Below are positions 1 to 62,984 of a stretch of DNA of 64,000 nt, in pieces. Both the position numbers and the translations under genes were made by a program. Where the stretch lies: assembly GCA_964016885.1 (NCBI GenBank), contig OZ024740.1:370884001-370948000 (forward strand), in the 5' to 3' direction. The DNA comes from Eledone cirrhosa (Eukaryota). Within the stretch, counting starts at the first letter, position 1. Every line of letters begins with the position of its first letter. The notes under the pieces were generated by a model that worked only from the letters and a program-made list of their open reading frames with translations, was not told the DNA's origin and did not search any database.

Positions 1-1302
1 TGTGTTCGAGAGACGCGACAGGCCGTCGAGGTATGAACTAAAGTCCATTGCCCCGTTCGGCTCACCGTCGTTCTGCTCAAACAGTCGCGCAAAGTGCCGC
101 TGAAAGGCTGCGCACATTTGCTTGGGGTCAAGTAGCACGCGTCCGTTTTGGTCTTTCAAAGACCGAATCGTCGACTTGTTGCCACTTTTTGCCTCCGCCA
201 CTCGGGCCCAGCTGACAGCTTTCGCTCCTTCGTTTCCTAGAGCACGTGTTTTGCTTCTGACCACGCAGCCTTCGTGTTTCGCATCGAAGAACTGGTCCAG
301 TGCCGTTCTCGACGCTAACACTCTAGCCGCGTTGCCACTTCTAAGTGCCTCCTCTACCTTGGCTACTAGTTCTCTTTCTATTCTGTTTTTCTCTAAGGCT
401 AACTCTCTGCTATACCCTATCGATTCTATTCTAATTGCTTTCTTGAGAGAGTACCACCATCTATTGTTGACGATGGCTCCCGTTAACTGTTGCTTGACTA
501 GTTTACTTATCCGTTCACTGTAAGCTTTACGTGCCGGCAACGACACGTTCAGCTTCCAGTATCCGGGACCCTGTCTATGTATTCTATCACGGTTGACTAA
601 GCAGACGACTAACTTGTGATCTGAATAGGCAACCATGTGCATTCGTGGACAGCTTAACATATCCTTGTCCCTTTCTCTAATGAAGAACCTATCTAAATAC
701 GATCTAGATGTCCCACTGCGGTTTACCCACGTCCACTGTGGTGCAGTCGGGAAATCCAGTCGATACCTATCGGCCAGTTGGAATTGGCCGATTAAAGTTT
801 TGAGGCTGTTGCACCCCGCTCTACTGGGACATGCTCCCACATAGTCCCATCGTGCATCTAGGATACCATTCCAGTCCCCCACTAAAAGTAAGGAGCGAGA
901 CGTTCCCAGAAAAGACTCTAGACGCTTAAAGAAGTCTGGCCGTGATTGCGATTGCCCGGTCGGGGCATAAACGGCCACCAGTCTGAAGGCTCCACCTCCG
1001 ATACTGTTCACGTCTAGGACTACCAGTCTACCCTCCGGGTCCAAGTGTACTTGCTGTACTCCGACGTCCAGGTTCTTCCGAAACATAACAGCCACTCCAC
1101 CTCCACCTCCTGGCTGACAGAGAGATGCGTAGATCTCAAAGTCGTCGAAGATGGGGGTTAGTTGCTGCCTGTTGTGGATCCTGGACTCGGTGATGGCTAT
1201 CACATCCATACTGTGTGACCTAAGGTCGTTTAAAAGTTGGCCCTGTTTCCAGGGCATCCCTAGGCCACGCACATTCACGGTTCCAACTCGTAAACCAGCC
1301 AT
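1..1302 (-). CDS. ORF2 N-terminus: apurinic-like endonuclease plus linker to RT (partial, runs off window)
   Basis: Manual translation from ATG at 1302 gives MAGLRVGTVNVRGL...DVIAITESR. GPGYWKLNVS (from 570) and MDFSSYLDGLSRLS (from 48) are in the same frame. Homologous to the 14592-16215 ORFs. Confidence 0.85.
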   Translation of the reverse strand, partial: MAGLRVGTVNVRGLGMPWKQGQLLNDLRSHSMDVIAITESRIHNRQQLTPIFDDFEIYASLCQPGGGGGVAVMFRKNLDVGVQQVHLDPEGRLVVLDVNSIGGGAFRLVAVYAPTGQSQSRPDFFKRLESFLGTSRSLLLVGDWNGILDARWDYVGACPSRAGCNSLKTLIGQFQLADRYRLDFPTAPQWTWVNRSGTSRSYLDRFFIRERDKDMLSCPRMHMVAYSDHKLVVCLVNRDRIHRQGPGYWKLNVSLPARKAYSERISKLVKQQLTGAIVNNRWWYSLKKAIRIESIGYSRELALEKNRIERELVAKVEEALRSGNAARVLASRTALDQFFDAKHEGCVVRSKTRALGNEGAKAVSWARVAEAKSGNKSTIRSLKDQNGRVLLDPKQMCAAFQRHFARLFEQNDGEPNGAMDFSSYLDGLSRLSNT

Positions 1303-1343
1303 GTTGGTAAAGAAAAGTTGGAGAAAAAGGACGAAAGGTGCAC

Positions 1344-3119
1344 TTACCTTTTCGTTTCCTGGAGATCGGGTTGTTCAATCTCCATTTGGGTGCTGGATGG
1401 GGTGTTGGGTGGGGTGGGGAAACCTTTCAACAGGACGCGGTTGATGGGTTTGTGGCAGGGGTTGCCCACGTCCTGTGAAAATTTAATTTTCAGGTCTTTA
1501 TAGGTTTCCATAGAAACCCTTATAAGTTTAATGTGTGGAGACGATTCTGCCTTGACGAAAGTTTTGCCCTCCGTCTCCACCTTGGGGTTTTGGGAGATGA
1601 CCTCCATCAAACTCTTGTTGTTTGTGTTGATGTATGCGTATTGTTGTTTGTGTTTTTGTTGTATTGTTTTAGTTTGTTGTTCATCCGGGAGTTTTCTTTT
1701 TATGGTGGGTGCTTGTGTTTGGGGTGGTGTTGGTGCTGGTTTTGCTGATAGGGGAATGTTTGACTGTGGTGTTGTTTGTGTTGTTGTTTGTGTCTGTGGT
1801 TGTGTGTTGGTGTTGGTGATTGGAGTTTTGGGGGTTTTGTGGTGTCTCTTTTTTTGTTTTTTGTATTTCCGCGGTTCTCCCTCTTCTTCACTTAAAGAAG
1901 GAGAAGCAGCTTCATCCGTCGATGAATAATCATCGTCAGGTGTGTGGGGTAAGGGTATGTTGTGTGGTGGTGGTGGTGTTTCGGTATGTGTGTTTGTGGT
2001 AGTGTTTGATGGAGTGGGATGGAGTGGGGATGTGTTCTTCAGGGGTGTTGTCTCTGTTTTTTCTGTTGTTGTTGGTTGAGTGTCTGTTTATTTTGGTGTG
2101 GTTGCTCGTTTCGTCTGTCGTTGTACTTGTGGTGGTGGTGGTGGTTGTTTTGGTGTTGGTGTTGGTAATAGCGTTTTTTTATGATGTTGTTGTTGTGTGT
2201 TTGTGGACAAGAGGCTTTTAGGTGAGATGTGCTACCACAGCGAAAGCAGTGAAATGTTCGTCCTTCTACCGAAATGTTTATTTTGTTGCTATTATCAATA
2301 ACGACTCTTTCGGGTATTTTGGAGATTCTCTCCGGTTTCATTTGCAACAGAATCTCCAAATCGGTGCCCGCCCACCTTTGTCGAATGGATTTTCGTATCG
2401 AAAGTATTATGTCTGTTTCTGGCTCTACGAAGCCAGCCAAGATCCACCAGATGTTAATGCTTGGAGGTATGTTTTTTTATTTTTATTTTTTGTGTAGGGA
2501 AAAAGGTGTATGCTTTTGACACTATTGGTGTCACAGAGTTTTTTGGGGCGAGTGTCTCGCTTTTAAACAGTACGGAAACACTTCCGTACTGTTTTCCTCG
2601 CTGGAGAAAATCGACATTTGCTAGAATCTCCTTGAAAGAATCTTCTATATCTGACTGATTAACAAATGTCGGTTTTCTTGACGAATTTGACACAGTCCTA
2701 AAAGTGACTGATCGGCGGTTTGTGTCTTCCTTTATTTCAAGGGGTGAGTTAATTCTAAACCCACCACTTTCTTCGAAAGTTACAAATTTTCTCCCTTGCT
2801 GGAGCATATCTCTTGCGTTGGAGATATCAAGATTTATAAAATCTTGTTTCTTGTTGACTGTGTCAGCGAAAGACATTTTCTTTTTTTGTGTGATGTTGTT
2901 GTTGATAATGATGTTATCGTTGTTGGAAATTTTATGTGTAGATGTATCTGTAGAGTTGTTGATGTCTTTTTCATGTGTATGTATGTCAATGGGTTTTTTT
3001 GCCGTGTTTTCCTGTGTGATATTGTCATTTTTCTCCGCTTCGGCGGTAGAAATTGTAAAATTTTCAAATGTTGATATATTTTTTTCTTTTGTAACAGTTG
3101 TATCTATGGCAACGTCCAT
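1344..3119 (-). pseudogene. Tx1 ORF1 (gag-like nucleic-acid-binding protein), frameshifted
   Basis: ORFs 2454-3119, 2039-2440 (CX2CX4HX4C), 1700-1891 and 1344-1610 lie directly upstream of ORF2, with low-complexity Q/H/T/K stretches. Confidence 0.7.
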
Positions 3120-14379: not shown

Positions 14380-17300
14380 GTAGAGACCAGAATCTCCGAG
14401 GCACGGGCCTTCGCACCGATCTTCGGCGGCTACGATGTGTACGCATCTCCCAGCCGTCCGGGATCGGGGGGAGGAGTTTCTGTGCTTTTTCGGAGAGGTT
14501 TGGATCTCGCCATACAGGCCATCTTCCTGGACCCAGAAGGTAAGTTGCTGGTGCTGGACGTGACCAGCGGAGACGGCAAGCTTTCAGGCTAGTGGCCGTC
14601 TATGGCCCGACAGGAGCAGGGCGGCTTGATTTCTTCCGGCGTCTGGAGACCTTTCTTGGAACGTCCCGCTCTTTAGTGTTAGTGGGCAACTGGAACGGGA
14701 TCTTTGATGCACGCTGGGATTGTGTGGGATTAGCGGATAGGGGAGGAGGGTACAAGAGCCTCACCAACCTGCTCAGGCGTTTTGAACAGTCTGACAGGTA
14801 CCGATTGAATTTCCCGAATGTGCCAATGTGGACTTGGACAAATTTCATCGGGTCATCCAGATCATATCTAGATAGAGTATTTTGTAGGGAAATAGATAGG
14901 TCTAGCATAGGCTGTCCACAATTCAAGATAGTCAGCTACACGGACCACAAATTCCTGATCTGTGTGGTTGACTTAGATAGGCTTCATAGACAAGGACCCG
15001 GCTACTGGAAGCTAAACGCGTCATTACCAGCGCGCAAGGCCTACAGAGACCGGATTAGCGAACTAGTTAAGCGGGCGTTGACGGGAGCCATCATCAACAA
15101 CAAGTAGTGGTTTGCTCTGAAAAGAGTGATTAGAACAGAGTCCATAAGGTTTAGCAAGGCTTTAGTAATAGAGAAAAATAGAGCAGAGGGAGAACTAGTT
15201 AGAAAATTAGACGAGGCGCTTGGCAAAGGCATCGCGGCCGACGTACTTACGGCGAAATTGACCCTTGACCAATTCTTCAATGCAAAGCACGAAGGCTGCG
15301 TTGTCAGAGCTAGGGTGCGTGCTCTCAGACACGAGGGGACGAAAGCCGTTCAATGGGCCCGAGTGGCGGAGGCGCGTCGCTTTGGTGGACCACGACGGGC
15401 GCATGCTACTCGATCCCGGGCAAATGTGTGAAGCTTTTCAGTGACACTTCGCTCAGCTGTTCGGGGGTAGCGGTGGTCCGGGTCGAGGGATGGACTTTAG
15501 TGTCTACCTCGACGGACTGCCGCGGATTTCGGCCACTGAGGCGGAGTGTTGCGAAAAGCCGATAACAGCCGCTGAAGTACGGGAAGCAATGACTGGCTGC
15601 ACAAGGGGTAAATCGCCTGGTTTGGATGGTCTGCCCTATGAACTTTACGTACAGATGCCAGACTTGTTAGGAGGCCTCTTGGCGGACGTCTACTGCAACT
15701 GGCAACAGAACGGGAGAATTCCCAGCTCTGTGAGCCGAGGAACTGTGGCGCTGGTGAGAAAGGATCCGAACAAGGGGGATAACATAGATAATTTCAGGCC
15801 CATAGCTCTGCTAAACACAGAGTTCAAGATTTTGGCCAAGGTGCTAGCAAAGAGGTTGGCACTTGTCGTTTGTGGTCTGGTGGGAGAGACGCAGACATGC
15901 GTCATTCCCAACAGATCCATCCACGACAACCTCCACCTCATGCGATACATCGTAGAGAGGGTAGCTAGGGAACCTGGCACGGGTGGGTCTTTGATCAATT
16001 TAGATCAGTCGAAAGCTTTCGATAAGGTCGACCATCGTTACCTAGCGGCAGTCCTGAGGGCGGCTGGCTTTGGGCCCGTCTTCAGAGGCTGGATCGCTGC
16101 TATGCACAGCGACATCTGCTCTGTGGTGAGAGTGAACGGTTACCTTTCGGAACCGTTCAACATCATGCGCTTGGTCCGCCAAGATGTCCCCTCTCGTCCC
16201 TCTTGTACGTATTGACTCTCGAGCCATTACTGCACAAACTGGAGACGTTGAGGGGCGTCCCGCGCGAACTAGGATGCGGAAGATCCGTGTCAGTATATGC
16301 GGACGATGTCACCGTAGTGGTGTCGAACGCCAAACACATCGAGGCGATCGGCACTACACTAAGAGAATACGAAGCGGTGACAGGAGCAATGATCAACCAG
16401 GAAAAGTCAGTGAGCCTGCAGCTCGGCACCTGGAGAGGCAGGTCCATGCCGTCCAACAGCGTCATCGGACGCTGGACGGACGGACCGGTTAAATTGCTAG
16501 GGGTCTGGTTCGGTCCGGACCTCTAGACGGACAAAAACTGGGACGAGGTGACGAGCAGGGTGGCTGCTCTCACCCAGAAATGGGCGGAGAGGAAGCTATC
16601 CCTGAAAGGTCGAGCGGAGGTGGATAACGCGTACATCGCGTCCGTCATCTAATACCGTCTGACCGTGTACCTTGTCCTAAGCCCCGCCTGACTGCGCTGG
16701 AGCGTTTGCTCTTTCGCTTTTTGTGGAAGGGACGCGCTCCGATGGTCAGGCGGTCCATCTGCTGTCAACACCAGCTACGTGGAGGGCTGGGCATGCCGTG
16801 GCTGATGATGCGCAGACACGCGCTCAGGCTACAACATCTCCACCTCTTCCTCGACGGTGATCAGGTGTGGTCGCCGTTTGCTAGACACGTCTTTCCCCAG
16901 CTCGTCTCCTTGACGGAGCTGCAATCCTGGGTCAAGCGAAGACCGAAAGGGAGCGCTTGGAGACTGGAATGTTTTCAGGCGCTCACAGCCCTCGACCAAT
17001 CGGGCAATGTGATCGGTGGAAACTCCACCTTGGCGTTCTATAGAGGATTAGTGGAGGGGAAGAGCGACGACGTACTTGGAGAAACTCTAGGCGTCGACGA
17101 AAATCAACTAGCCATTCTCTTCGGAAGGACTTTCGAGCCGGGGCCTATGGACAACTTCCAGAAATCCCTGGCCTAGCAGTGCTACTGGGGAGCTTTGCCA
17201 GTTCGGGATAAACTCTACAGGCATGGAGTTGCCGTCAAACGGGCATGTCCGAGATGCGCGCAGACGACGAAACCGTCCTGCACGCACTCGTCCAGTGTCC

Positions 17301-28111: not shown

Positions 28112-28456
28112 AGTTAAAACAATGAAATAAAAAATCAAGTCATTAGAAATATACTTCACTGCTTTACGATCGTTTCTAGGTGATGATAATACATCGTAAC
28201 CATACTTCTTTATCGATCTATGTAAGGTTAGTTACAAAATATCAGATAAGGAAAATATTTATTTACATGTATATCACCAGCTGTTGTCAAAAGCAATGAG
28301 AATTTTATTCTGTTTTCCTTTTAATGTTATATTGTTTTCCGGGATTTATTTTAACATACAACATTTTCAACATATGGATTTCATTGAGTTCTTCATGCAG
28401 ACTAGACCCCACAACTTACCGTGGATGTCTCTGTGTATATATATATATATATATAT

Positions 28457-29305
28457 TAATGACATCATCGATGCTGGGTTTAAAATCACATCTGATCTCA
28501 ACATCCTGGACCGGACTGAACCTCTGGACCCTATTTCTCCCCACTTTACTCTGAAGGATCACAAATGCAATTTCCCGAACAACCCCTCTATTCGGCTTAT
28601 CAACCCTACGAAGTCCGATTTAGGTAGACTTAGTAAAAGGATTTTAGATAGAATTATACCTGAAATTAGAAGCTTGGCCCCTCTTGCACTCTGGAACAAT
28701 TCTTTCGCGTTGATTGATTGGTTCAACGGCATATGCAACAAGGAACATTGCCATTTTATCCAACTCGACATCAATAATTACTACTCCTCCATCACTTTAC
28801 CACTTCTTCTTAGAGCTATCAATTTCGCTAAAACGCTCACGCTGGTTAAGGATTTCGAAGTTGATGTCATCCTCAATGCCTGTAAGTCGGTGATTAATTT
28901 CGACGACTCTATTTGGATTAAAAAATCTAATAGTACTCCATTCGACGTGAGTATGGGCGCCAACGATTCTGCGGAGGTTACTGATCTTATCGGCCTTTTC
29001 CTTCTTTTCTCTATCAAGGTAGAATTCCCCAACGTGGGCGGTGGTTTGTATCGTAATGACGGTCTTTTGACCATGACAAAGTGCGGCCCATGCGCTTGCG
29101 ACAGGTTCAGAAAAGAACTCACTGCCTTCTTTAAAGGCTTCAACCTCTCCATACAGGTTGAGGCCAACCTCTCGGTCGTTAATTACCTCGACGTCACCCT
29201 CAATTTGTCGAATGGCTTGCACTACCTGTATAGAAAGTTGTATGATACGCTTAATTACATAAGTAAGCATTCTAACTATTCTGCCAGCATAACCAAGAAC
29301 CTGGG
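28457..29305 (+). pseudogene. Penelope-like element reverse transcriptase core (truncated at both ends)
   Basis: TLKDHK.NF...RLINPTKSDLG...FIQLDINNYYSSI...FDVSMGANDSAEV...GGLYRNDGL...NYLDVTLNL. The catalytic YRDD reads YRND. The ORF N-terminus is read through a (TA)n tract. Confidence 0.9.
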
Positions 29306-29557
29306 AACGTCTCCAGGAACCAAAGTATCGTCTTCCTGTCTTCCTTCGGTCGCAAGGGTTTTCGAAATATTTACTTCTGCGTTCATAGATTGATTTTTTT
29401 TAGTTTCAGAAGATCATGTTAAGGGTGAAAGCAGCGATTCTTTGCTTAAACTTTAATCTGTTATTTTAATAACAGCTAGATCCGAACTATATATATATAT
29501 ATAAAATAGAAGTATTATATCACAAACTCGTAGTTTATATATATATATATATATATA

Positions 29558-32006: not shown

Positions 32007-33804
32007 ACTATATTCACACCTTCGGTGTATATGACGCAGGCAGAATTTGATATAAAATCTGTGGGTAAAAAATTATACATCAGAAAATACCGTATGAATT
32101 TAGATGAGTTGTTGAAATCGTTTTACGATACTTCAGAGTAATGGAAGCGGGGTTTTTTCACAAGACATTTTAGCTTGTTTTGATTGATGAGTTTTATGTT
32201 AAGCCTGTAATTAAATAATAGACATCTACGTGAATTTCACCGTGTAAGATGTACTTGTAGATATATAGATTATTTACTTATTTCGAAAAGGTTTTTTATT
32301 TCATCAACCAAATGCAAACACGCTTTAGAAGATTTATAGCTTTAAATCTGAGCTTAGCTTATGTAGAAAATAATTGATTATACTTCTGAATTCTATATTC
32401 TTGATTAAAGGGGGGCATTTTCGGGATTCGAATCGAAAGTCCTTTTTTTTCTTTGTGTGTGTGTGTAGTCTCACTATATCTTTTATAAGACAATTCATGC
32501 ATCATTTATACTTTGTCACACTTTCCCTTGTTGTTGTTGTTTAGCCCCAGATCCACTCCGAGATTGAGTAAACATGTGAGCAAAATCCTTTTGCCTTTTG
32601 CCTTTGTTTGGATTTCGGAAAATGCACATTATCCTGTGTTCCTATTTTAAAAGACAGTAAAAGTTCGACAAAAATAGATCGATAAATACGTCCCAGCTTG
32701 AAACAAAATAAGCATTGGTGTGTCCATAGGATGAATAAAATCCCTTTAAAGCGGGAGCCCGGCATGACAATAGTCTAATGACTGACACCAGTAAAATAAT
32801 AAAGTGAAAATGCAATACAACGTCTGAAGAAAGTTACCTTTCCTTCAATACTGAGCAGCATTTACTCAGCACCACATTATTGCAAGGGCATTATGCAAAC
32901 CATGAATTCCTCAAGCTATCTTTATCATTACTTCTCTCAGGTGTGTAAGTGTAAATTGTTTATTGCGCTTGGATTAATCAAATATAAAATGGGTGGATTG
33001 ATAGGTGGTATGGATCTTTCAAAACGAACTGTTTGAATTTTTATGACGTTATGTGATTGTATCCATGGTGCTTATTGCAATGAAAGTGTCATCAAGAATT
33101 TACCAATTTTGATCTTTGTAGACGAGTGTAATAGAATGTTATATTTCTGAGAAACACATATCATACCTTTTAGAGATATGAATATAGAGGGAGTTTGTCC
33201 TATAAAAAAACAATCGATTTTTAAATTGTTCATATTTTTATTTATACTTTAAATTCCAAATATATTAGAATAGGATGCATCTGTTGAGAATATATTTTTT
33301 AAAAGGATTTCTTGTTAGACCTTTATATATTTTGCTTCGCTGTTAAGCCTTAGCTTGATGAACTTTATTTTTAGACATATCACAAATTACTTCTTTAAAC
33401 AAAGGTAGACCCTAGGGATATTGTAAATACATAGAAGAGGAGGGGGTTATGTATTTGGGCTGAATATATTTCTTCCGTTTAGTAGAGCAAAGATTTTTAG
33501 TACATCTGTAGCTCACATCAATGTTATTTCTATTCAAAATCTTATATCTACGTACTAAGGGTTCCGCCTGGGATTCTAATAGAATATGCACATTCTACTC
33601 TGTGTTTTGAGTACTATTTTCTTCGTTTGCAAACACGAGCGTTCACCATTAAATGTATGTGTGTGTGTGAACGCGCAGGTGTATATTCTTTATTAAGGCC
33701 AAGGTTGAGTCTTATTATTCTGGAATTTCTCCTGTGTACTCACAGGGTCATCATTACTAAGTAGATATATATATTCGTGCATATAGTATATATATATTAT
33801 ATAT

Positions 33805-36800
33805 ATTGTAGACTTGTTCTATATGTGACGGTATTTTAACGATAGTTATAGCTCTGATTCATCTGAATTATTGAGCCCTCTGCCGCTCATATCGAATTCC
33901 GTTTATCGTGAACTCGTGCGCCGATTTTTCGATACTCGATCTTTCTAATATATTTAGCTCTGGACATAGCTATCCACCAGTTAATTTTATTGCTCATTTT
34001 TTGTCGATTCTATTGAGTGATGAATAGCTTTTGTTTTATTTTAACATGTCTATTGAGCACTCTAATTCGATATGTGTATTTCCACATTCACTCGAATTGT
34101 TTTCGCGGATATAGGGGTCATCTCCCTTGTCTAATGCCATGTGCGTTTTTCACCGCTAGTTGACTCCTTTGCCGCCAGGATAAAACTCGTTGACAACGTA
34201 AACTCCGTTCCACTTATTCTAGTAGGCTTTTATATTTATATGTGAGCTGATAGAGTACAGTCTAAGGATTTACAGAAACCCATGAAGCTAGATTTAACAC
34301 CTTTCTAGTGGGTCCGGGTATGATTTTACATTCATTTAAATTATTGACGTATTGTTTTATTGATATTTTTTATCTGTTTGGCCCGAATCTTCCTTTATCG
34401 ATTTTAAATCGTATGGTTGATTGTAGACTTGTTCTATATGTGACGGTATTTTAACGATAGTTATAGCTCTGATTCATCTGAATTATTGAGCCCTCTGCCG
34501 CTCATATCGAATTCCGTTTATCGTGAACTCGTGCGCCGATTTTTCGATACTCGATCTTTCTAATATATTTAGCTCTGGACATAGCTATCCACCAGTTAAT
34601 TTTATTGCTCATTTTTTGTCGATTCTATTGAGTGATGAATAGCTTTTGTTTTATTTTAACATGTCTATTGAGCACTCTAATTCGATATGTGTATTTCCAC
34701 ATTCACTCGAATTGTTTTCGCGGATATAGGGGTCATCTCCCTTGTCTAATGCCATGTGCGTTTTTCACCGCTAGTTGACTCCTTTGCCGCCAGGATAAAA
34801 CTCGTTGACAACGTAAACTCCGTTCCACTTATTCTAGTAGGCTTTTATATTTATATGTGAGCTGATAGAGTACAGTCTAAGGATTTACAGAAACCCATGA
34901 AGCTAGATTTAACACCTTTCTAGTGGGTCCGGGTATGATTTTACATTCATTTAAATTATTGACGTATTGTTTTATTGATATTTTTTATCTGTTTGGCCCG
35001 AATCTTCCTTTATCGATTTTAAATCGTATGGTTGATTGTAGACTTGTTCTATATGTGACGGTATTTTAACGATAGTTATAGCTCTGATTCATCTGAATTA
35101 TTGAGCCCTCTGCCGCTCATATCGAATTCCGTTTATCGTGAACTCGTGCGCCGATTTTTCGATACTCGATCTTTCTAATATATTTAGCTCTGGACATAGC
35201 TATCCACCAGTTAATTTTATTGCTCATTTTTTGTCGATTCTATTGAGTGATGAATAGCTTTTGTTTTATTTTAACATGTCTATTGAGCACTCTAATTCGA
35301 TATGTGTATTTCCACATTCACTCGAATTGTTTTCGCGGATATAGGGGTCATCTCCCTTGTCTAATGCCATGTGCGTTTTTCACCGCTAGTTGACTCCTTT
35401 GCCGCCAGGATAAAACTCGTTGACAACGTAAACTCCGTTCCACTTATTCTAGTAGGCTTTTATATTTATATGTGAGCTGATAGAGTACAGTCTAAGGATT
35501 TACAGAAACCCATGAAGCTAGATTTAACACCTTTCTAGTGGGTCCGGGTATGATTTTACATTCATTTAAATTATTGACGTATTGTTTTATTGATATTTTT
35601 TATCTGTTTGGCCCGAATCTTCCTTTATCGATTTTAAATCGTATGGTTGATTGTAGACTTGTTCTATATGTGACGGTATTTTAACGATAGTTATAGCTCT
35701 GATTCATCTGAATTATTGAGCCCTCTGCCGCTCATATCGAATTCCGTTTATCGTGAACTCGTGCGCCGATTTTTCGATACTCGATCTTTCTAATATATTT
35801 AGCTCTGGACATAGCTATCCACCAGTTAATTTTATTGCTCATTTTTTGTCGATTCTATTGAGTGATGAATAGCTTTTGTTTTATTTTAACATGTCTATTG
35901 AGCACTCTAATTCGATATGTGTATTTCCACATTCACTCGAATTGTTTTCGCGGATATAGGGGTCATCTCCCTTGTCTAATGCCATGTGCGTTTTTCACCG
36001 CTAGTTGACTCCTTTGCCGCCAGGATAAAACTCGTTGACAACGTAAACTCCGTTCCACTTATTCTAGTAGGCTTTTATATTTATATGTGAGCTGATAGAG
36101 TACAGTCTAAGGATTTACAGAAACCCATGAAGCTAGATTTAACACCTTTCTAGTGGGTCCGGGTATGATTTTACATTCATTTAAATTATTGACGTATTGT
36201 TTTATTGATATTTTTTATCTGTTTGGCCCGAATCTTCCTTTATCGATTTTAAATCGTATGGTTGATTGTAGACTTGTTCTATATGTGACGGTATTTTAAC
36301 GATAGTTATAGCTCTGATTCATCTGAATTATTGAGCCCTCTGCCGCTCATATCGAATTCCGTTTATCGTGAACTCGTGCGCCGATTTTTCGATACTCGAT
36401 CTTTCTAATATATTTAGCTCTGGACATAGCTATCCACCAGTTAATTTTATTGCTCATTTTTTGTCGATTCTATTGAGTGATGAATAGCTTTTGTTTTATT
36501 TTAACATGTCTATTGAGCACTCTAATTCGATATGTGTATTTCCACATTCACTCGAATTGTTTTCGCGGATATAGGGGTCATCTCCCTTGTCTAATGCCAT
36601 GTGCGTTTTTCACCGCTAGTTGACTCCTTTGCCGCCAGGATAAAACTCGTTGACAACGTAAACTCCGTTCCACTTATTCTAGTAGGCTTTTATATTTATA
36701 TGTGAGCTGATAGAGTACAGTCTAAGGATTTACAGAAACCCATGAAGCTAGATTTAACACCTTTCTAGTGGGTCCGGGTATGATTTTACATTCATTTAAA

Positions 36801-39800
36801 TTATTGACGTATTGTTTTATTGATATTTTTTATCTGTTTGGCCCGAATCTTCCTTTATCGATTTTAAATCGTATGGTTGATTGTAGACTTGTTCTATATG
36901 TGACGGTATTTTAACGATAGTTATAGCTCTGATTCATCTGAATTATTGAGCCCTCTGCCGCTCATATCGAATTCCGTTTATCGTGAACTCGTGCGCCGAT
37001 TTTTCGATACTCGATCTTTCTAATATATTTAGCTCTGGACATAGCTATCCACCAGTTAATTTTATTGCTCATTTTTTGTCGATTCTATTGAGTGATGAAT
37101 AGCTTTTGTTTTATTTTAACATGTCTATTGAGCACTCTAATTCGATATGTGTATTTCCACATTCACTCGAATTGTTTTCGCGGATATAGGGGTCATCTCC
37201 CTTGTCTAATGCCATGTGCGTTTTTCACCGCTAGTTGACTCCTTTGCCGCCAGGATAAAACTCGTTGACAACGTAAACTCCGTTCCACTTATTCTAGTAG
37301 GCTTTTATATTTATATGTGAGCTGATAGAGTACAGTCTAAGGATTTACAGAAACCCATGAAGCTAGATTTAACACCTTTCTAGTGGGTCCGGGTATGATT
37401 TTACATTCATTTAAATTATTGACGTATTGTTTTATTGATATTTTTTATCTGTTTGGCCCGAATCTTCCTTTATCGATTTTAAATCGTATGGTTGATTGTA
37501 GACTTGTTCTATATGTGACGGTATTTTAACGATAGTTATAGCTCTGATTCATCTGAATTATTGAGCCCTCTGCCGCTCATATCGAATTCCGTTTATCGTG
37601 AACTCGTGCGCCGATTTTTCGATACTCGATCTTTCTAATATATTTAGCTCTGGACATAGCTATCCACCAGTTAATTTTATTGCTCATTTTTTGTCGATTC
37701 TATTGAGTGATGAATAGCTTTTGTTTTATTTTAACATGTCTATTGAGCACTCTAATTCGATATGTGTATTTCCACATTCACTCGAATTGTTTTCGCGGAT
37801 ATAGGGGTCATCTCCCTTGTCTAATGCCATGTGCGTTTTTCACCGCTAGTTGACTCCTTTGCCGCCAGGATAAAACTCGTTGACAACGTAAACTCCGTTC
37901 CACTTATTCTAGTAGGCTTTTATATTTATATGTGAGCTGATAGAGTACAGTCTAAGGATTTACAGAAACCCATGAAGCTAGATTTAACACCTTTCTAGTG
38001 GGTCCGGGTATGATTTTACATTCATTTAAATTATTGACGTATTGTTTTATTGATATTTTTTATCTGTTTGGCCCGAATCTTCCTTTATCGATTTTAAATC
38101 GTATGGTTGATTGTAGACTTGTTCTATATGTGACGGTATTTTAACGATAGTTATAGCTCTGATTCATCTGAATTATTGAGCCCTCTGCCGCTCATATCGA
38201 ATTCCGTTTATCGTGAACTCGTGCGCCGATTTTTCGATACTCGATCTTTCTAATATATTTAGCTCTGGACATAGCTATCCACCAGTTAATTTTATTGCTC
38301 ATTTTTTGTCGATTCTATTGAGTGATGAATAGCTTTTGTTTTATTTTAACATGTCTATTGAGCACTCTAATTCGATATGTGTATTTCCACATTCACTCGA
38401 ATTGTTTTCGCGGATATAGGGGTCATCTCCCTTGTCTAATGCCATGTGCGTTTTTCACCGCTAGTTGACTCCTTTGCCGCCAGGATAAAACTCGTTGACA
38501 ACGTAAACTCCGTTCCACTTATTCTAGTAGGCTTTTATATTTATATGTGAGCTGATAGAGTACAGTCTAAGGATTTACAGAAACCCATGAAGCTAGATTT
38601 AACACCTTTCTAGTGGGTCCGGGTATGATTTTACATTCATTTAAATTATTGACGTATTGTTTTATTGATATTTTTTATCTGTTTGGCCCGAATCTTCCTT
38701 TATCGATTTTAAATCGTATGGTTGATTGTAGACTTGTTCTATATGTGACGGTATTTTAACGATAGTTATAGCTCTGATTCATCTGAATTATTGAGCCCTC
38801 TGCCGCTCATATCGAATTCCGTTTATCGTGAACTCGTGCGCCGATTTTTCGATACTCGATCTTTCTAATATATTTAGCTCTGGACATAGCTATCCACCAG
38901 TTAATTTTATTGCTCATTTTTTGTCGATTCTATTGAGTGATGAATAGCTTTTGTTTTATTTTAACATGTCTATTGAGCACTCTAATTCGATATGTGTATT
39001 TCCACATTCACTCGAATTGTTTTCGCGGATATAGGGGTCATCTCCCTTGTCTAATGCCATGTGCGTTTTTCACCGCTAGTTGACTCCTTTGCCGCCAGGA
39101 TAAAACTCGTTGACAACGTAAACTCCGTTCCACTTATTCTAGTAGGCTTTTATATTTATATGTGAGCTGATAGAGTACAGTCTAAGGATTTACAGAAACC
39201 CATGAAGCTAGATTTAACACCTTTCTAGTGGGTCCGGGTATGATTTTACATTCATTTAAATTATTGACGTATTGTTTTATTGATATTTTTTATCTGTTTG
39301 GCCCGAATCTTCCTTTATCGATTTTAAATCGTATGGTTGATTGTAGACTTGTTCTATATGTGACGGTATTTTAACGATAGTTATAGCTCTGATTCATCTG
39401 AATTATTGAGCCCTCTGCCGCTCATATCGAATTCCGTTTATCGTGAACTCGTGCGCCGATTTTTCGATACTCGATCTTTCTAATATATTTAGCTCTGGAC
39501 ATAGCTATCCACCAGTTAATTTTATTGCTCATTTTTTGTCGATTCTATTGAGTGATGAATAGCTTTTGTTTTATTTTAACATGTCTATTGAGCACTCTAA
39601 TTCGATATGTGTATTTCCACATTCACTCGAATTGTTTTCGCGGATATAGGGGTCATCTCCCTTGTCTAATGCCATGTGCGTTTTTCACCGCTAGTTGACT
39701 CCTTTGCCGCCAGGATAAAACTCGTTGACAACGTAAACTCCGTTCCACTTATTCTAGTAGGCTTTTATATTTATATGTGAGCTGATAGAGTACAGTCTAA

Positions 39801-42551
39801 GGATTTACAGAAACCCATGAAGCTAGATTTAACACCTTTCTAGTGGGTCCGGGTATGATTTTACATTCATTTAAATTATTGACGTATTGTTTTATTGATA
39901 TTTTTTATCTGTTTGGCCCGAATCTTCCTTTATCGATTTTAAATCGTATGGTTGATTGTAGACTTGTTCTATATGTGACGGTATTTTAACGATAGTTATA
40001 GCTCTGATTCATCTGAATTATTGAGCCCTCTGCCGCTCATATCGAATTCCGTTTATCGTGAACTCGTGCGCCGATTTTTCGATACTCGATCTTTCTAATA
40101 TATTTAGCTCTGGACATAGCTATCCACCAGTTAATTTTATTGCTCATTTTTTGTCGATTCTATTGAGTGATGAATAGCTTTTGTTTTATTTTAACATGTC
40201 TATTGAGCACTCTAATTCGATATGTGTATTTCCACATTCACTCGAATTGTTTTCGCGGATATAGGGGTCATCTCCCTTGTCTAATGCCATGTGCGTTTTT
40301 CACCGCTAGTTGACTCCTTTGCCGCCAGGATAAAACTCGTTGACAACGTAAACTCCGTTCCACTTATTCTAGTAGGCTTTTATATTTATATGTGAGCTGA
40401 TAGAGTACAGTCTAAGGATTTACAGAAACCCATGAAGCTAGATTTAACACCTTTCTAGTGGGTCCGGGTATGATTTTACATTCATTTAAATTATTGACGT
40501 ATTGTTTTATTGATATTTTTTATCTGTTTGGCCCGAATCTTCCTTTATCGATTTTAAATCGTATGGTTGATTGTAGACTTGTTCTATATGTGACGGTATT
40601 TTAACGATAGTTATAGCTCTGATTCATCTGAATTATTGAGCCCTCTGCCGCTCATATCGAATTCCGTTTATCGTGAACTCGTGCGCCGATTTTTCGATAC
40701 TCGATCTTTCTAATATATTTAGCTCTGGACATAGCTATCCACCAGTTAATTTTATTGCTCATTTTTTGTCGATTCTATTGAGTGATGAATAGCTTTTGTT
40801 TTATTTTAACATGTCTATTGAGCACTCTAATTCGATATGTGTATTTCCACATTCACTCGAATTGTTTTCGCGGATATAGGGGTCATCTCCCTTGTCTAAT
40901 GCCATGTGCGTTTTTCACCGCTAGTTGACTCCTTTGCCGCCAGGATAAAACTCGTTGACAACGTAAACTCCGTTCCACTTATTCTAGTAGGCTTTTATAT
41001 TTATATGTGAGCTGATAGAGTACAGTCTAAGGATTTACAGAAACCCATGAAGCTAGATTTAACACCTTTCTAGTGGGTCCGGGTATGATTTTACATTCAT
41101 TTAAATTATTGACGTATTGTTTTATTGATATTTTTTATCTGTTTGGCCCGAATCTTCCTTTATCGATTTTAAATCGTATGGTTGATTGTAGACTTGTTCT
41201 ATATGTGACGGTATTTTAACGATAGTTATAGCTCTGATTCATCTGAATTATTGAGCCCTCTGCCGCTCATATCGAATTCCGTTTATCGTGAACTCGTGCG
41301 CCGATTTTTCGATACTCGATCTTTCTAATATATTTAGCTCTGGACATAGCTATCCACCAGTTAATTTTATTGCTCATTTTTTGTCGATTCTATTGAGTGA
41401 TGAATAGCTTTTGTTTTATTTTAACATGTCTATTGAGCACTCTAATTCGATATGTGTATTTCCACATTCACTCGAATTGTTTTCGCGGATATAGGGGTCA
41501 TCTCCCTTGTCTAATGCCATGTGCGTTTTTCACCGCTAGTTGACTCCTTTGCCGCCAGGATAAAACTCGTTGACAACGTAAACTCCGTTCCACTTATTCT
41601 AGTAGGCTTTTATATTTATATGTGAGCTGATAGAGTACAGTCTAAGGATTTACAGAAACCCATGAAGCTAGATTTAACACCTTTCTAGTGGGTCCGGGTA
41701 TGATTTTACATTCATTTAAATTATTGACGTATTGTTTTATTGATATTTTTTATCTGTTTGGCCCGAATCTTCCTTTATCGATTTTAAATCGTATGGTTGA
41801 TTGTAGACTTGTTCTATATGTGACGGTATTTTAACGATAGTTATAGCTCTGATTCATCTGAATTATTGAGCCCTCTGCCGCTCATATCGAATTCCGTTTA
41901 TCGTGAACTCGTGCGCCGATTTTTCGATACTCGATCTTTCTAATATATTTAGCTCTGGACATAGCTATCCACCAGTTAATTTTATTGCTCATTTTTTGTC
42001 GATTCTATTGAGTGATGAATAGCTTTTGTTTTATTTTAACATGTCTATTGAGCACTCTAATTCGATATGTGTATTTCCACATTCACTCGAATTGTTTTCG
42101 CGGATATAGGGGTCATCTCCCTTGTCTAATGCCATGTGCGTTTTTCACCGCTAGTTGACTCCTTTGCCGCCAGGATAAAACTCGTTGACAACGTAAACTC
42201 CGTTCCACTTATTCTAGTAGGCTTTTATATTTATATGTGAGCTGATAGAGTACAGTCTAAGGATTTACAGAAACCCATGAAGCTAGATTTAACACCTTTC
42301 TAGTGGGTCCGGGTATGATTTTACATTCATTTAAATTATTGACGTATTGTTTTATTGATATTTTTTATCTGTTTGGCCCGAATCTTCCTTTATCGATTTT
42401 AAATCGTATGGTTGATTGTAGACTTGTTCTATATGTGACGGTATTTTAACGATAGTTATAGCTCTGATTCATCTGAATTATTGAGCCCTCTGCCGCTCAT
42501 ATCGAATTCCGTTTATCGTGAACTCGTGCGCCGATTTTTCGATACTCGATC

Positions 42552-42563
<12 letters not shown>
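33805..42563 (+). repeat. Tandem array: 14 full copies + 149 bp of a 615-bp unit, flanked by (TA)n
   Basis: TGTAGACTTGTTC recurs exactly every 615 bp (33807, 34422 ... 42417). No differences noticed by eye. Confidence 0.97.
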
Positions 42564-42616
<53 letters not shown>

Positions 42617-52534: not shown

Positions 52535-54050
52535 TGGACAGAAACGTTTGAGTGTCGGCCAAAATCTTTTGAGCTTTCAAATTTCATCGATGTCAACTTT
52601 GCCTGTCACCCACCTATGGTCGATAAAATAACTTTCCCCTCCCACCAAAATTGTTGGCCTGGTACCTAAATCAGAAATCATTATTATATACTTGAGGGCC
52701 GTGGATTGGCAGCATCGGTAGAGCGTCGAACAATATGCTTTGAAGTATAGAGTTACGGCCCTTTGCGTTTTGAGTTCAAATCCTGCCGAGGTTACCTTTA
52801 CCTTTCATCCTTATGAGGTCGATAAAATAAAGCATCACTAACGCACTGGGGTCAATTTTATCGACTTTCCACTCTTCCAAAAAATTCCTGGCCTTGTGCC
52901 CAAAGTAGAAATCATTATTATATAAAGTAAACTTCGGCAAATTCCGCCGAGGTTTACTTTGCCTTTCATCCTTACGGGGTCGATAAAATGAAGTACCAGT
53001 AATGCACTGGGTAATTGCTGGCCTTGTGCCAAAAGTAGAAACAATTAATATATAGTTGGCCCAAAGTAGAAATCATTATTATAGAGTTGGTCCAAAGTAG
53101 AAATCATTATTATATAGTTGGCCCAAAGTAGAAATCATTATTATATAGTTGGTCCAAAGAAGAAATCATTATTATATAGTTGGCCCAAAGTAGAAACAAT
53201 TATTATATAGTTGGCCCAAAGTAGAAATCATTATTATATAGTTGGCCCAAAGTAGAAATCATTATTATATAGTTGGCCCAAAGTAGAAATCATTATTATA
53301 TAGTTGGCCCAAAGTAGAAATCATTATTATATAGTTGGCCCAAAGTAGAAATCATTATTATAGAGTTGGCCCAAAGTAGAAATCATTATTATATAGTTGG
53401 CCTAAAGTAGAAATCATTATTATAGAGTTGGTCCAAAGTAGAAATCATTATTATATAGTTGGTCCAAAGTAGAAATCATTAATATATAGTTGGCCCAAAG
53501 TAGAAACAATTATTATAGAGTTGGCCCAAAGTAGAAATCATTAATATATAGTTGGCCCAAAGTAGAAATCATTATTATATAGTTGGCGGTGGATTGGCAG
53601 TATTGGTAGAGTGTCGGATGCCATGCTTTGGCGCATAGAGTTACGGCCCTTGCCATTCTGAGTTCAAATCCCGCCGAGGTTAACTTTGCGGTGGATTGGC
53701 AGTATTCGTAGAAGGTCGGACGCCATGTTTTCCAGCATAGTTACGTCCCTTTACGATCTGAGTTCAAATCCCACCGAGGTTGACTTTGCCTTTCATCCTT
53801 ACGGGGTCGATAAAATAAAGTACCAGTAATGCACTGGGTAATTGCTGGCTTTGTGCCTAGAGTAGAAACAATTATTATATAGGGTTGGACGCCATGCTTT
53901 CTAGCATAGGTACGTCCCTTTACGATTTGAGTTCAAATCCCGTCGTGATTAACTTTGCCTTTCATCCTTACGAGGTCGATAAAATAAAGTACCAGTAATG
54001 TACTGGATAATTGGTGGCCTTGTGCCAAAAGTAGAAACAATTATTATATA
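52535..54050 (+). mobile_element. Head-to-tail cluster of ~6 SINE family 1 copies containing a 31-bp minisatellite
   Basis: Repeated consensus copies. Confidence 0.85.
53030..53587 (+). repeat. 31-bp minisatellite (GGCCCAAAGTAGAAATCATTATTATATAGTT), ~18 copies
   Basis: Seen directly. Confidence 0.95.
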
Positions 54051-58646: not shown

Positions 58647-59836
58647 CTCCCTTCCTATGCGGCATGATGTCACTAAAACAATATATGATTCAAAGCCATC
58701 CTTAGTAAACACTCCACTGAGATAAATATAGAAAATATTGTTGTCGTCCAATGTACACAAACACATATATCAACACAAAGAATGTTGCTGGAAAATTCCA
58801 TCGAAACTTCTTCCAAGTTCAAACATAACACGCCTATGATAGTTGTTGAGACAGAACAGGAACAAACGTTATAGATGGGATAGAAGAGCTGGGGTTATAA
58901 TAAAATGTTGTGAGGAAAACAACTGGAATTTTGAAGCAAAACACACACTTCATAAATATAATCTGTATGCGGAGCAATAAAAATATGCAAAACTTTTCTA
59001 AATTCCAGTATGTTACTACTCACAGTAGTTATTATATAAATTCTAGAGCTTTGTTTCGCTAGAAAACAGCTCCCCTATTGAAAGGCTCCTTCTATAAAAA
59101 ATAAAATTCTCAATTGTGAAGATAATATCTTAACTATAATAAAGAGAGGAGTGGGGACTTCATCCAGAATATTTTTTTTTACCCCGTTTGTAAAATAAGT
59201 TGGATTACTTTGAATAAATAATAAATGAATATTACATAATTTATGTGCTAAATTTCGTGGCTGTTGATTAAATATATTTTATAGCTTATTTAATGATTCA
59301 CTTCTTTAAAATGTTCAAATGTCAACACTTCCGGTTAGCGGCCGTTATATTATAACACAAAATATCGCATATATTTCCGATGCTAATTTTCTCCCAATGC
59401 AGTTTATATATAATATTGTCTTTTTTAAATGTATCATGGATTACTTTACGGATTACATAAGACAGTGTAACACAGTCTCTCTTCAATTTCTGTGTATATT
59501 GTCAATTACGATTTTATTTGATGTATCATATCTACATACATATATATTTGTATATAATATCAATATACACACTACACATGCTAGCAGAAAACCACCCCAA
59601 GGGTGGTTTTTCTGCTAGTTTCTAGTAATAAAGTTTCATGTGAGTCTCATGTTATTAATATTCCAGTGGCTAAGAATGTTCTTGGAAAGAGAATTTCTAA
59701 ATATATTCCTGTCTGTGTCAGTAGCCTAGTGAAGATCAATTGGTAATACTTGAATAATATATTTCTCGAAAATTTGTTTCAACCCCAAGTTTCTGAAATT
59801 CTTAGATTTTCCTTGAAAGAAATCTATTGCAGCTTG

Positions 59837-61745
59837 GAACACTTTGTCTAATATATTTTTCCCACTATATTTATATTACTCAGAACACTTTGTCTGATGT
59901 GTTGTTCCCACTGTATATGTATTACTCAGAACACTTTGTCTGATGTGTTGTTCCTACTGTATATATATTACTTAGAATACTGTGTCTGATGTGTTGTTCC
60001 CACTGTATATATATTACTAAGAACACTTTGTCTGATGTGTTGTTCCCACTGTATATGTATTACTTAGAATACTGTGTCTGATGTGTTGTTCCCACTGTAT
60101 ATATATTACTAAGAACACTTTGTCTGATGAGTTGTTCCCACTGTATATATATTACTTAGAACACTTTGTCTGGTGTGTTGTTCCCACTGTATATGTATTA
60201 CTTAGAATACTGTGTCTGATGTGTTGTTCCCATTGTATATATATTACTAAGAACACTTTGTCTGATGAGTTGTTCCCACTGTATATGTATTACTTAGAAT
60301 ACTGTGTCTGATGTGTTGTTCCCATTGTATATATATTACTAAGAACACTTTGTCTGATGAGTTGTTCCCACTGTATATATATTACTTAGAACACTTTGTC
60401 TGGTGTGTTGTTCCCACTGTATATGTATTACTTAGAATACTGTGTCTGATGTGTCTTCCCACTGTATATATATTACTAAGAACACTTTGTCTGATGAGTT
60501 GTTCCCACTGTATATGTATTACTTAGAACACTTTGTCTGATGTGTTGTTCCCACTGTATATGTATTACTTAGAATACTGTGTCTGAGTGTCTTCCCACTG
60601 TATATGTATTACTAAGAACACTTTGTCTGATGAGTTGTTCCCACTGTATATGTATTACTTAGAATACTGTGTCTGATGTGTCTTCCCACTGTATATGTAT
60701 TACTAAGAACACTTTGTCTGATGAGTTGTTCCCACTGTATATGTATTACTTAGAACACTTTGTCTGATGTGTTGTTCCCACTGTATATGTATTACTTAGA
60801 ATACTGTGTCTGATGTGTCTTCCCACTGTATATGTATTACTAAGAACACTTTGTCTGATGAGTTGTTCCCACTGTATATGTATTACTTAGAACACTTTGT
60901 CTGATGTGTTGTTCCCACTGTATATGTATTACTTAGAATACTGTGTCTGATGTGTCTTCCCACTGTATATATATTACTAAGAACACTTTGTCTGATGAGT
61001 TGTTCCCACTGTATATGTATTACTTAGAACACTTTGTCAGATGTGTTTTTACTACTGTATATGTATTACGCAGAGCACTTTGTTTGATGTGTTGTTCTTA
61101 TTGTATATATATTACTTAGAATACTTTGTCTGATGTGTCTTCCCACTGTATATATATTACTCAGAACACTTTGTCTGATGAGTTGTTCCCACTGTATATG
61201 TATTACTCAGAACACTTTGTCTGATGTGTTTTCCTATTGTATATGTATTACTTAGAACACTTTGTCTGATGTGTTTTACTACTGTATATGTATTACTTAG
61301 AATACTTTGTCTGATGTGTTTTCCTATTGTATATATATTACTCAGAACACTTTGTCTGATGATTTGTTCCCACTGTATATGTATTACTCAGAACACTTTG
61401 TCGGATGTGTTTTCCTATTGTATATGTATTACTTAGAATACTTTGTCTGATGTGTTTTCCTATTGTATATATATTACTCAGAACACTTTGTCTGATGAGT
61501 TGTTCCCACTGTATATGTATTACTCAGAACACTTTGTCGGATGTGTTTTCCTATTGTATATGTATTACTTAGAACACTTTGTCTGATGTGTTGTTCCTAC
61601 TGTATATATATTACTTAGAATACTTTGTCTGATGTGTTTTTACTACTGTATATGTATTACTTAGAATACTTTGTCTTATGTGTTTTTCCTATTGTATAAG
61701 TATTACTCAGAACAATTAGTCAATGTTTTTTCTCACTGTATGTGT
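59837..61745 (+). repeat. 46-bp minisatellite (GAACACTTTGTCTGATGTGTTGTTCCCACTGTATATGTATTACTTA), ~41 copies
   Basis: Period 46 (59883, 59929...), with 44-45-bp variants at the right end. Confidence 0.95.
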
Positions 61746-62984
61746 ATTTCTTAAGCGCTTTCTCAATGTATGTGTTTTACTCAGGAAGTTACCTGGCACA
61801 TTGCATAAAAGTATTCCTAACAATAAAATAGTATTCTTGTGAAACATTGATTAAAAAAGTAAAAGTGAAATGTTGAAGAACTTTATTATTACAACCTCAG
61901 TTCTCATTCCATCTCATAAAGTACTATGACCAAACTAATTAGGCTTTTGTAAAATATAACAGGTCCTGCAACAGTCTGAAATTATTAAAGAAGGTTGTTT
62001 AGTTTTGTAATTTGCTATACTCGCTGACTGTTTGATAAATTCAATTGATTCTCAAAACCTCAGCTTTTGAATAATCTTACGAGAAAATCATTGTCGAAAA
62101 AGTTTAACCTCTTTCAACAACAGAAGTAACACATACAGTGTTTCACTTATGTGTGCAGCTACACATTTTCCCAAATCTGTGGCCATGTTATTTCATTGTC
62201 TCTACATCACATGGAATCTTATTATATGGAAAATCTCTCCCAATAAAGCATAATCGTGTTAGAAATTAACTACATAATATCTAGAGCATAGCATTCAAAA
62301 TCATAATGAATCCTTGAAACATTCCACTAAACCCTATATCTTACAACTTTGAAAATCATTGGTTTTTGTTTCTCTGGTATACATTGATATATGTTTTGTT
62401 AAGGGTCGAAATATGAAGATTTGTCATCCAAATTAGGTTTTTGCCACACAATGAGAAAATAAATGAAATTATAGTGAACATGTTTTCCTTCTCCGGTATA
62501 TATATCAAGCTATTTCAACTTTCAGTTGATGTGGAATTGTTATAAAATATATATTTTCATTAAATTACATTAGTTTTGTTAATAAATTTGTTGTTACCTT
62601 TTTTAATCGTCTTTTTTTTTTTAGAGTCACCTCGTTTTCATTTTAATCTATCATGTCTGTTTGTGCCGTTTCTTTTCTTTTTTTTTATTTCATCGTTTTT
62701 AAATTTCGGTACAGTTACGGTTGAAGTGGCGAATTTGCAGTCCTCAGAACGTCAGATAGAACGCTTTACGGCATTCATTCTGGCTCTTCAAATTCCACCG
62801 AGGTCAACTTTGCTTTTCCTGCTTTTGAAGTCAATAAAAAAAGTACAAGCCCAATACTGGGGTCGAATCTTTCTCTATACCTCTTTCTCACTTTTTCTCT
62901 ATCACTCTCTCTTCTTCTCTGGGAGAAATCGGCTGTCTAGACCTGGAAAGAGATGGGCTCTGCAAGGTTTAAAATCTTCTTGTG

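Follow-up and report, generated by a model that had tools for sequence, protein, structure and literature searches.

Penelope-like elements (PLEs) are described in PMC8557442 as leaving 5'-truncated insertions that share one 3' end and are further marked by inverted arms and a tail, and members of the Hydra clade are described there as inserting into (TA)n. For the PLE of the green anole, PMC11167929 reports that the reverse transcriptase (RT) initiates inside the RNA, the tail being delimited by two such start sites, and that the ribozyme of this element, Poseidon PAc, is dispensable for insertion in vitro. How PLE RNA is recognized and how tandem and inverted insertions are built is under debate: a 2014 paper (PMC4209133) put forward copying from circles, and a preprint of 2026 (bioRxiv 10.64898/2026.07.22.740005) favors local DNA amplification instead. 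Here we analyze a window of 64,000 nucleotides from the genome of Eledone cirrhosa (contig OZ024740.1, positions 370,884,001 to 370,948,000) that contains a tandem array of 615-bp units at 33805-42563. We consider it moderately probable, from sequence comparison, that the array is an insertion of a non-coding family likely mobilized by a Hydra-clade PLE and likely re-copied from one unit-length RNA, and that the hammerhead-like motif in each unit is probably a relic.

The array consists of 14 full units without a single difference between them and a 149-bp partial unit, 14.24 units in total, with no coding frame and no open reading frame (ORF) longer than 62 codons in any frame. It is bordered on the left by TA-rich target sequence (33764-33804), where the 5'-truncation junction lies, and on the right by a (TA)28 tract (42558-42613), the first ATATAT of which overlaps the element's own sequence as microhomology at the fixed 3' end. 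We read it as one 5'-truncated insertion with the + strand as the putative RNA sense, because of the fixed end and because the ORF strand of Hydra-type elements bears the same helices. According to sequence and fold, the terminal partial unit (42415-42563, +) holds helix 1 (42461-42486) and a 106-nt tail running from site 1 to site 2, both described below. A preliminary description of the locus, made from its letters alone, had reported this extent, apparently identical units, the 149-bp end, the (TA)n borders and the non-coding character, all of which are confirmed. It had also raised the possibility of an assembly artifact. The tandem structure is real, because run X4 has short-read contigs in which the unit reaches a depth of 7,500-244,000 and one of them spans a unit junction (34540-34634) with no differences, with a TA loose end at 34568; X4 may be the source sample, and the number of units is that of the array as assembled. 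Tandem Repeats Finder, with its period limit of 500, is blind to the array.

Insertion ends and a likely Hydra-clade link

The array is one among hundreds of insertions of a young dispersed non-coding family. The repeats that flank the array may be of cephalopod type, judging by their look. A DNA search of the 3.0-Gb genome found near-identical arrays on many chromosomes, and exact patterns matched 742 terminal 3' ends and 1,413 internal junctions genome-wide, the reversed-pattern control matching none. Counting unit coordinates from 33805 as 1, almost all arrays finish at unit 143-149, with their own ATATAT running into (TA)n, and their 5' ends are scattered. Among loci chosen by best BLAST hit or motif rather than at random, and excluding arrays cut by the border of the fetched stretch, the 3' end of the window's subfamily lies at site 2 (33947-33953, +, in the first unit) in 34 of 37 cases, at site 1 (unit 38-40; 33842-33844, +) in two and elsewhere in one. 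Both site-1 ends belong to arms of head-to-head inverted insertions (L037 and L047), the other arm of which stops at site 2, so that partial tandems, an inverted 5' arm and an optional tail are found in the family together with the fixed 3' end and variable 5' truncation. In older subfamilies, 60-84% identical and with units of 580-620 bp, the homologous end site was used in about 74 of 79 cases. Dispersed copies of the unit are present genome-wide, and their ends, inverted arms and clonal arrays support the link to Penelope that the preliminary description had drawn.

The older subfamilies (L058-L087 and L194-L223) mostly comprise 1-2.3 units, against up to 18 in young arrays, and recombination between units may have collapsed the old arrays. 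A second abundant short element flanked by (TA)n, with GCCGTCGAAACGGC and TTGAGCTCTGCC, occurs at L159:1860-1990 and near L264, L265 and L277; in one case it is fused, in inverted orientation, with an array of the 615-bp family at the 5' end of that array, and it is possibly another PLE parasite.

The informative features of the unit are two bulged helices close to where insertions end, on which the preliminary description did not remark. Each end site is followed within a few nucleotides by a helix of one and the same design, with a GCUC/GAGC stem of 4 bp, an inner stem, and a UU bulge in the 3' strand. Helix 1 (33851-33876, +; pair probability 0.99-1.0) begins 6-9 nt after site 1, and the long-range helix 2 (33957-34058, +), which appears in minimum-energy folds and has a probability of about 0.3 here, begins 3-9 nt after site 2. 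Helix 2 shows compensatory changes across subfamilies, the outer G-C becoming U-A and the inner U-A becoming C-G. The helix-1 motif arose in two of 3000 shuffles of the unit, and the unit folds better than its shuffles (z=-3.4, from 20 shuffles only).

Autonomous Hydra-type elements of the same genome carry the same two helices, 92-101 nt apart as against 106-108 in the 615-bp family. In the stretch queried, all 20 TA-abutting ends of these elements lie just 5' of one helix or the other (13 and 7, by hand count). The helix-1 motif is found at 22 of 37 Hydra loci, some of which overlap (two further matches being copies of the 615-bp family), at one of 50 loci of the PLE type that we take to be Neptune, and at none of 29 loci of a third type; Poseidon-like, where we apply it to PLEs of this genome, is likewise a presumed label. 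The Hydra-clade assignment was read by eye, without a tree, against the description in PMC8557442, and relies on RWR (not RWK), DKT, a CxCx5C linker and a C-terminal endonuclease region with CxxC and CxH in the ORFs of L255, L258 and L260. Many Hydra-type elements have open frames of 840-970 codons, one (L259) has a minimal hammerhead in Rfam among the best 150 of 226 rows, and these candidate drivers also insert into (TA)n. The family therefore has a cis signal in common with an autonomous PLE of its own genome, namely two bulged helices with matching end offsets. Mobilization by a PLE is highly probable on this comparison, and because the two helices are shared at both ends, the Hydra clade is the likely driver.

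Neptune-type and third-type PLEs were considered as drivers and set aside: the helix motif is nearly absent from them, although two chimeric junctions remain. The unit has no convincing blastn or tblastn match to the 50 Neptune-type loci, a weak antisense match to a Neptune-type ORF (E=0.2) not being upheld by tblastn, and blastn against the Hydra and third-type loci gave only the family's own copies among the matches listed. The window also contains, at about 28455-29310 (+), a 5'-truncated fragment of a Hydra-type PLE reverse transcriptase that starts at a (TA)n tract, its motifs recognized by eye.

The hammerhead-like motif

The preliminary description gave every unit a variant hammerhead, and part of this claim stands. 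The motif CTGATAGA...GAAA...GTC is present at 34247-34314 (+) with the letters it wrote, stem III (ACCC/GGGT) pairs with a probability of 0.74-0.86 in the circular fold, and the stem III region is conserved in relatives. The working hammerhead was not borne out. Stem I, already called weak, is a single base pair, and stem II as drawn has a probability of 0.0. The covariance-model search that had been proposed gave no Rfam match in the array at E<=10, while Hammerhead_1 detects the ribozyme of a Hydra element at E=4e-4 (among the best 150 of 226 rows). We compared 56 distinct related sequences, selected for GC(T/G/A)GA and downstream motifs, the rows being related and not independent. The canonical core (CTGANGA) occurs in none of them and a form with one insertion in 13; the commonest form, that of the commonest old subfamily, is CGGACGGT. 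The stem II originally drawn is fully paired in nine, whereas an overlapping 4-bp helix, which takes in bases 7-10 of the supposed core, is fully paired in 42 sequences and draws on several pair types. The unit thus has no type I hammerhead, canonical or minimal, by Rfam, core or stem I. A relaxed descriptor fitted post hoc to the motif matched seven of 3000 shuffles, and therefore the resemblance to a hammerhead is probably not pure chance. The motif is probably a relic ribozyme, which agrees best with the dead ribozyme that the preliminary description had offered as a fallback, and there is a good chance that it is not canonically active.

An alternative is that the family is a true retrozyme, in which the variant hammerhead would cut after C34314, perhaps with the help of a PLE protein, and the monomer would be ligated to a circle. 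The motif lies upstream of helix 1, as does the Hydra ribozyme, and stem III and the inner hairpin are conserved with a compensatory change from CTAGA/TCTAG to CTGGA/TCCAG. The ribozyme of the anole PLE is reported to cleave only with protein (PMC11167929), and an insertion after A6 is reported to retain low activity (PMC3088659). Such activity is nevertheless difficult to reconcile with a core that is never canonical, in which position 9 is G in all but one of the 56 sequences and U4 and G8 vary without compensation at C3, or with the single base pair of stem I, the preference for the overlapping helix over stem II and the blank Rfam search beside its positive control. In the old subfamily S0, 5' junctions accumulate just 3' of the GUC site, at 37 loci compared with 11 and 19 at two control sites, an excess of 2-3 times by hand count, but this pile-up falls mostly on TA-like microhomology and is absent from young arrays, where two of about 34 ends lie in the 22 nt after the site. 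We regard a functioning retrozyme as unlikely.

Type II and III hammerheads and the hairpin ribozyme were also tried, including a CTGATGA inside helix 2 of old subfamilies, and by eye they do not pair. Splice-like signals overlie the motif in every unit (34247-34319 in the first), with a branch-like CTGAT, CAG at 34273-34275, a 42-nt stretch and GT at 34318; the T of this GT is kept in all 56 related sequences, with a purine at +3. As a route to a circle, splicing was rejected, since the signals around the 42-nt stretch give products of 42, 548 or 657 nt and not 615. Autonomous PLE families with minimal hammerheads (L121, L131, L135, L137, L259 and L260) include U3-A8 core variants and an extra base before GAAA.

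Clonal arrays and the proposed copying of the unit

The 217 full units of 31 arrays fall into nine array-wide haplotypes, and no array mixes two; the longest array fetched has 18 full units. After removal of a trimming artifact at unit position 144 there are 33 single-unit variants; a single small contig holds 10 of them, and no other array shows any of them at the matching rank. Variants shared by some of the units occur in two arrays. One of the two (L050) has a variant in two adjacent units. In the other, G456T occurs in five of 13 units, scattered at ranks 5, 9, 10, 12 and 13 from the 3' end, all among the units copied later under the model given below, and it is absent from the 55 units of four arrays of the same haplotype; the pattern fits repeated misreading of one template base over many passes. 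The clonality of the arrays favors repeated reverse transcription of one unit-length RNA, and it is fairly likely that the arrays arose by re-copying a single RNA. Of the interpretation in the preliminary description, a recent retroelement concatemer with a likely rolling-circle reverse-transcription origin is supported, and a conserved hammerhead in every unit is not.

In the model that we prefer, the unit would be transcribed from the + strand, and the monomer would be closed into a circle, or a linear monomer would be re-copied by template jumps. The Hydra RT/GIY-YIG protein would bind the bulged GCUC/UU/GAGC helix, nick (TA)n and prime a few nucleotides 5' of the helix; the insertion ends are observed at that place, and it is the priming there that is proposed. 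The RT would then make many laps and halt at random, in keeping with the clonal arrays of up to 18 full units and the scattered 5' ends. Priming on the other target strand at helix 1 would produce an inverted arm whose end is 106 nt shorter, and two such insertions were observed. A more specific version of this model, a ribozyme-free retrozyme, can be put forward tentatively: the 615-nt RNA would be circularized, or re-copied in the manner of telomerase, without a hammerhead, and recognition of the bulged helix by a Hydra-clade PLE RT would set both starts. If true, clonal concatemers of more than 11 kb would form in one event and would preserve in the genome as many as 18 readings of a single template.

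Several points weigh against the preferred model. If the ribozyme does not work, an RNA circle would need another route, and the RNA, its circle and any cleavage are predictions from DNA. Linear transcripts of homogeneous master arrays would also yield homogeneous daughters, young age by itself lowers variation, and the G456T variant in five of 13 units could be gene conversion. Helix 2, with a probability of only about 0.3 in the window's sequence, is not predicted by RNAalifold on three rows, and the alternative helix over the supposed core has a probability of 0.0 in the single-sequence fold and is based on covariation among non-independent rows. The sequence likeness between the unit and Hydra elements that the comparison brought out is limited to the helices. 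Among the Hydra subfamilies none was seen to match the arrays in youth, and in the group that looked most uniform two sampled loci were about 91% alike. Two copies of old subfamilies (L221:996-2950 and L084/L267) are fused head-to-head, without (TA)n, with the 3' part of other PLE types. These fusions may represent insertion beside older elements in shared (TA)n tracts; it is also possible that a dimeric RT co-inserted two different RNAs, or that an insertion deleted part of its target.

It is conceivable that long master arrays give rise to linear read-through RNA, that reverse transcription of this RNA begins at an internal site, and that the number of units grows and is homogenized by unequal exchange at the DNA level. 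This would require neither circle nor ribozyme. With internal initiation, linear RNA too would give fixed ends (PMC11167929), and bioRxiv 10.64898/2026.07.22.740005 models the arrays of retrozymes by local amplification. Most sampled arrays have few haplotypes, one being common to 16 of the 31, and L050 has a variant in two adjacent units. It would, however, demand transcripts of more than 11 kb, a homogeneous master for each haplotype and repeated fixation of whole arrays. The nine fixed haplotypes, the lack of any mixed array and the lack of rank-matched variants point instead to repeated monomer bottlenecks, and we think it improbable that linear read-through is the source of the arrays.

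Helitrons also have fixed 3' ends and tandem copies, and the end of the window's array includes CTAA, matching CTRR. A DNA-level origin as a Helitron-type rolling circle or an ordinary satellite is nonetheless strongly disfavored and very improbable, since TTTGT or TTTAT stands at the homologous end of the old subfamilies, without the CTRR after a hairpin that a Helitron 3' end has, since one end is common to hundreds of dispersed sites, and since the inverted 5' arms, the tail, and the helices and end positions in common with an RT-encoding element are PLE traits.

The window also contains minisatellites at 53028-53587 (31 bp x18) and 59833-61753 (46 bp x42), and open frames that by eye resemble fragments of endonuclease and reverse transcriptase of long interspersed nuclear elements at 1-1374 (-) and 15445-16212 (+). 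Horizontal spread was considered and not used as evidence. At least half of the sequence words are present in 11 runs under eight organism labels; of the six such runs examined X4 alone has carrier-level depth, and X1, X2, X6, X8 and X9, at about 3-190, have the look of trace DNA. For the organism of X8, a raw Hi-C run gave no reads in 1.9 Gb and was marked as no test. Run X14, which we guess to be RNA, holds short pieces only and is not evidence on expression.

Relation to known systems

The 615-bp family provides genomic evidence that separates circle-based copying from local DNA amplification. It also offers a candidate RT-recognition helix that the parasite has in common with its likely driver, and in vitro work gains a natural substrate of short length. 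It suggests that searches based on the hammerhead miss part of the retrozyme-like class. A literature search, with Repbase, Dfam and the supplements of PMC8557442 outside its scope, found no paper on the bulged helix or on a Hydra-dependent non-autonomous family, and the 615-bp unit may already have an entry there as an unnamed repeat.

The animal retrozymes without long terminal repeats (LTRs), as described in PMC7229834 and bioRxiv 10.64898/2026.07.22.740005, are non-coding, low-GC tandem units, present as dimers to long multimers and dispersed in the genome, and are proposed to be PLE-dependent and copied from circles. The 615-bp family likewise consists of non-coding, low-GC tandem units, from dimers to long multimers, dispersed in the genome, and its unit is inside the reported range of 51-972 bp. 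It differs in lacking an intact type I hammerhead and in being longer than the typical unit of 150-450 bp. Its partner is inferred from the end helices and not from homology of the pseudo-LTR, and it is known here from DNA alone. Because it fails as a hammerhead carrier, we file it as a non-autonomous PLE derivative despite its retrozyme-like working: it is probably a retrozyme-like, Hydra-dependent non-autonomous PLE with a relic ribozyme.

The family resembles the Hydra-clade PLEs described in PMC8557442 in (TA)n targeting, partial tandems, inverted 5' arms and two alternative ends, and those of its own genome have the same pair of bulged helices, equally far from the ends. Unlike them it has no ORF, its ribozyme is degenerate where Hydra has a minimal canonical one, its helix 2 spans an interior of about 90 nt as opposed to about 10 nt, and it forms arrays of up to 18 full units. 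In the green anole, Poseidon PAc (PMC11167929) also has two internal start sites that define an optional tail, and AT-rich targets. It belongs to a different clade, its tail is 30-40 bp in contrast to 106 nt, and it starts in an AC-rich stem-loop, whereas the 615-bp family ends just 5' of a bulged helix.

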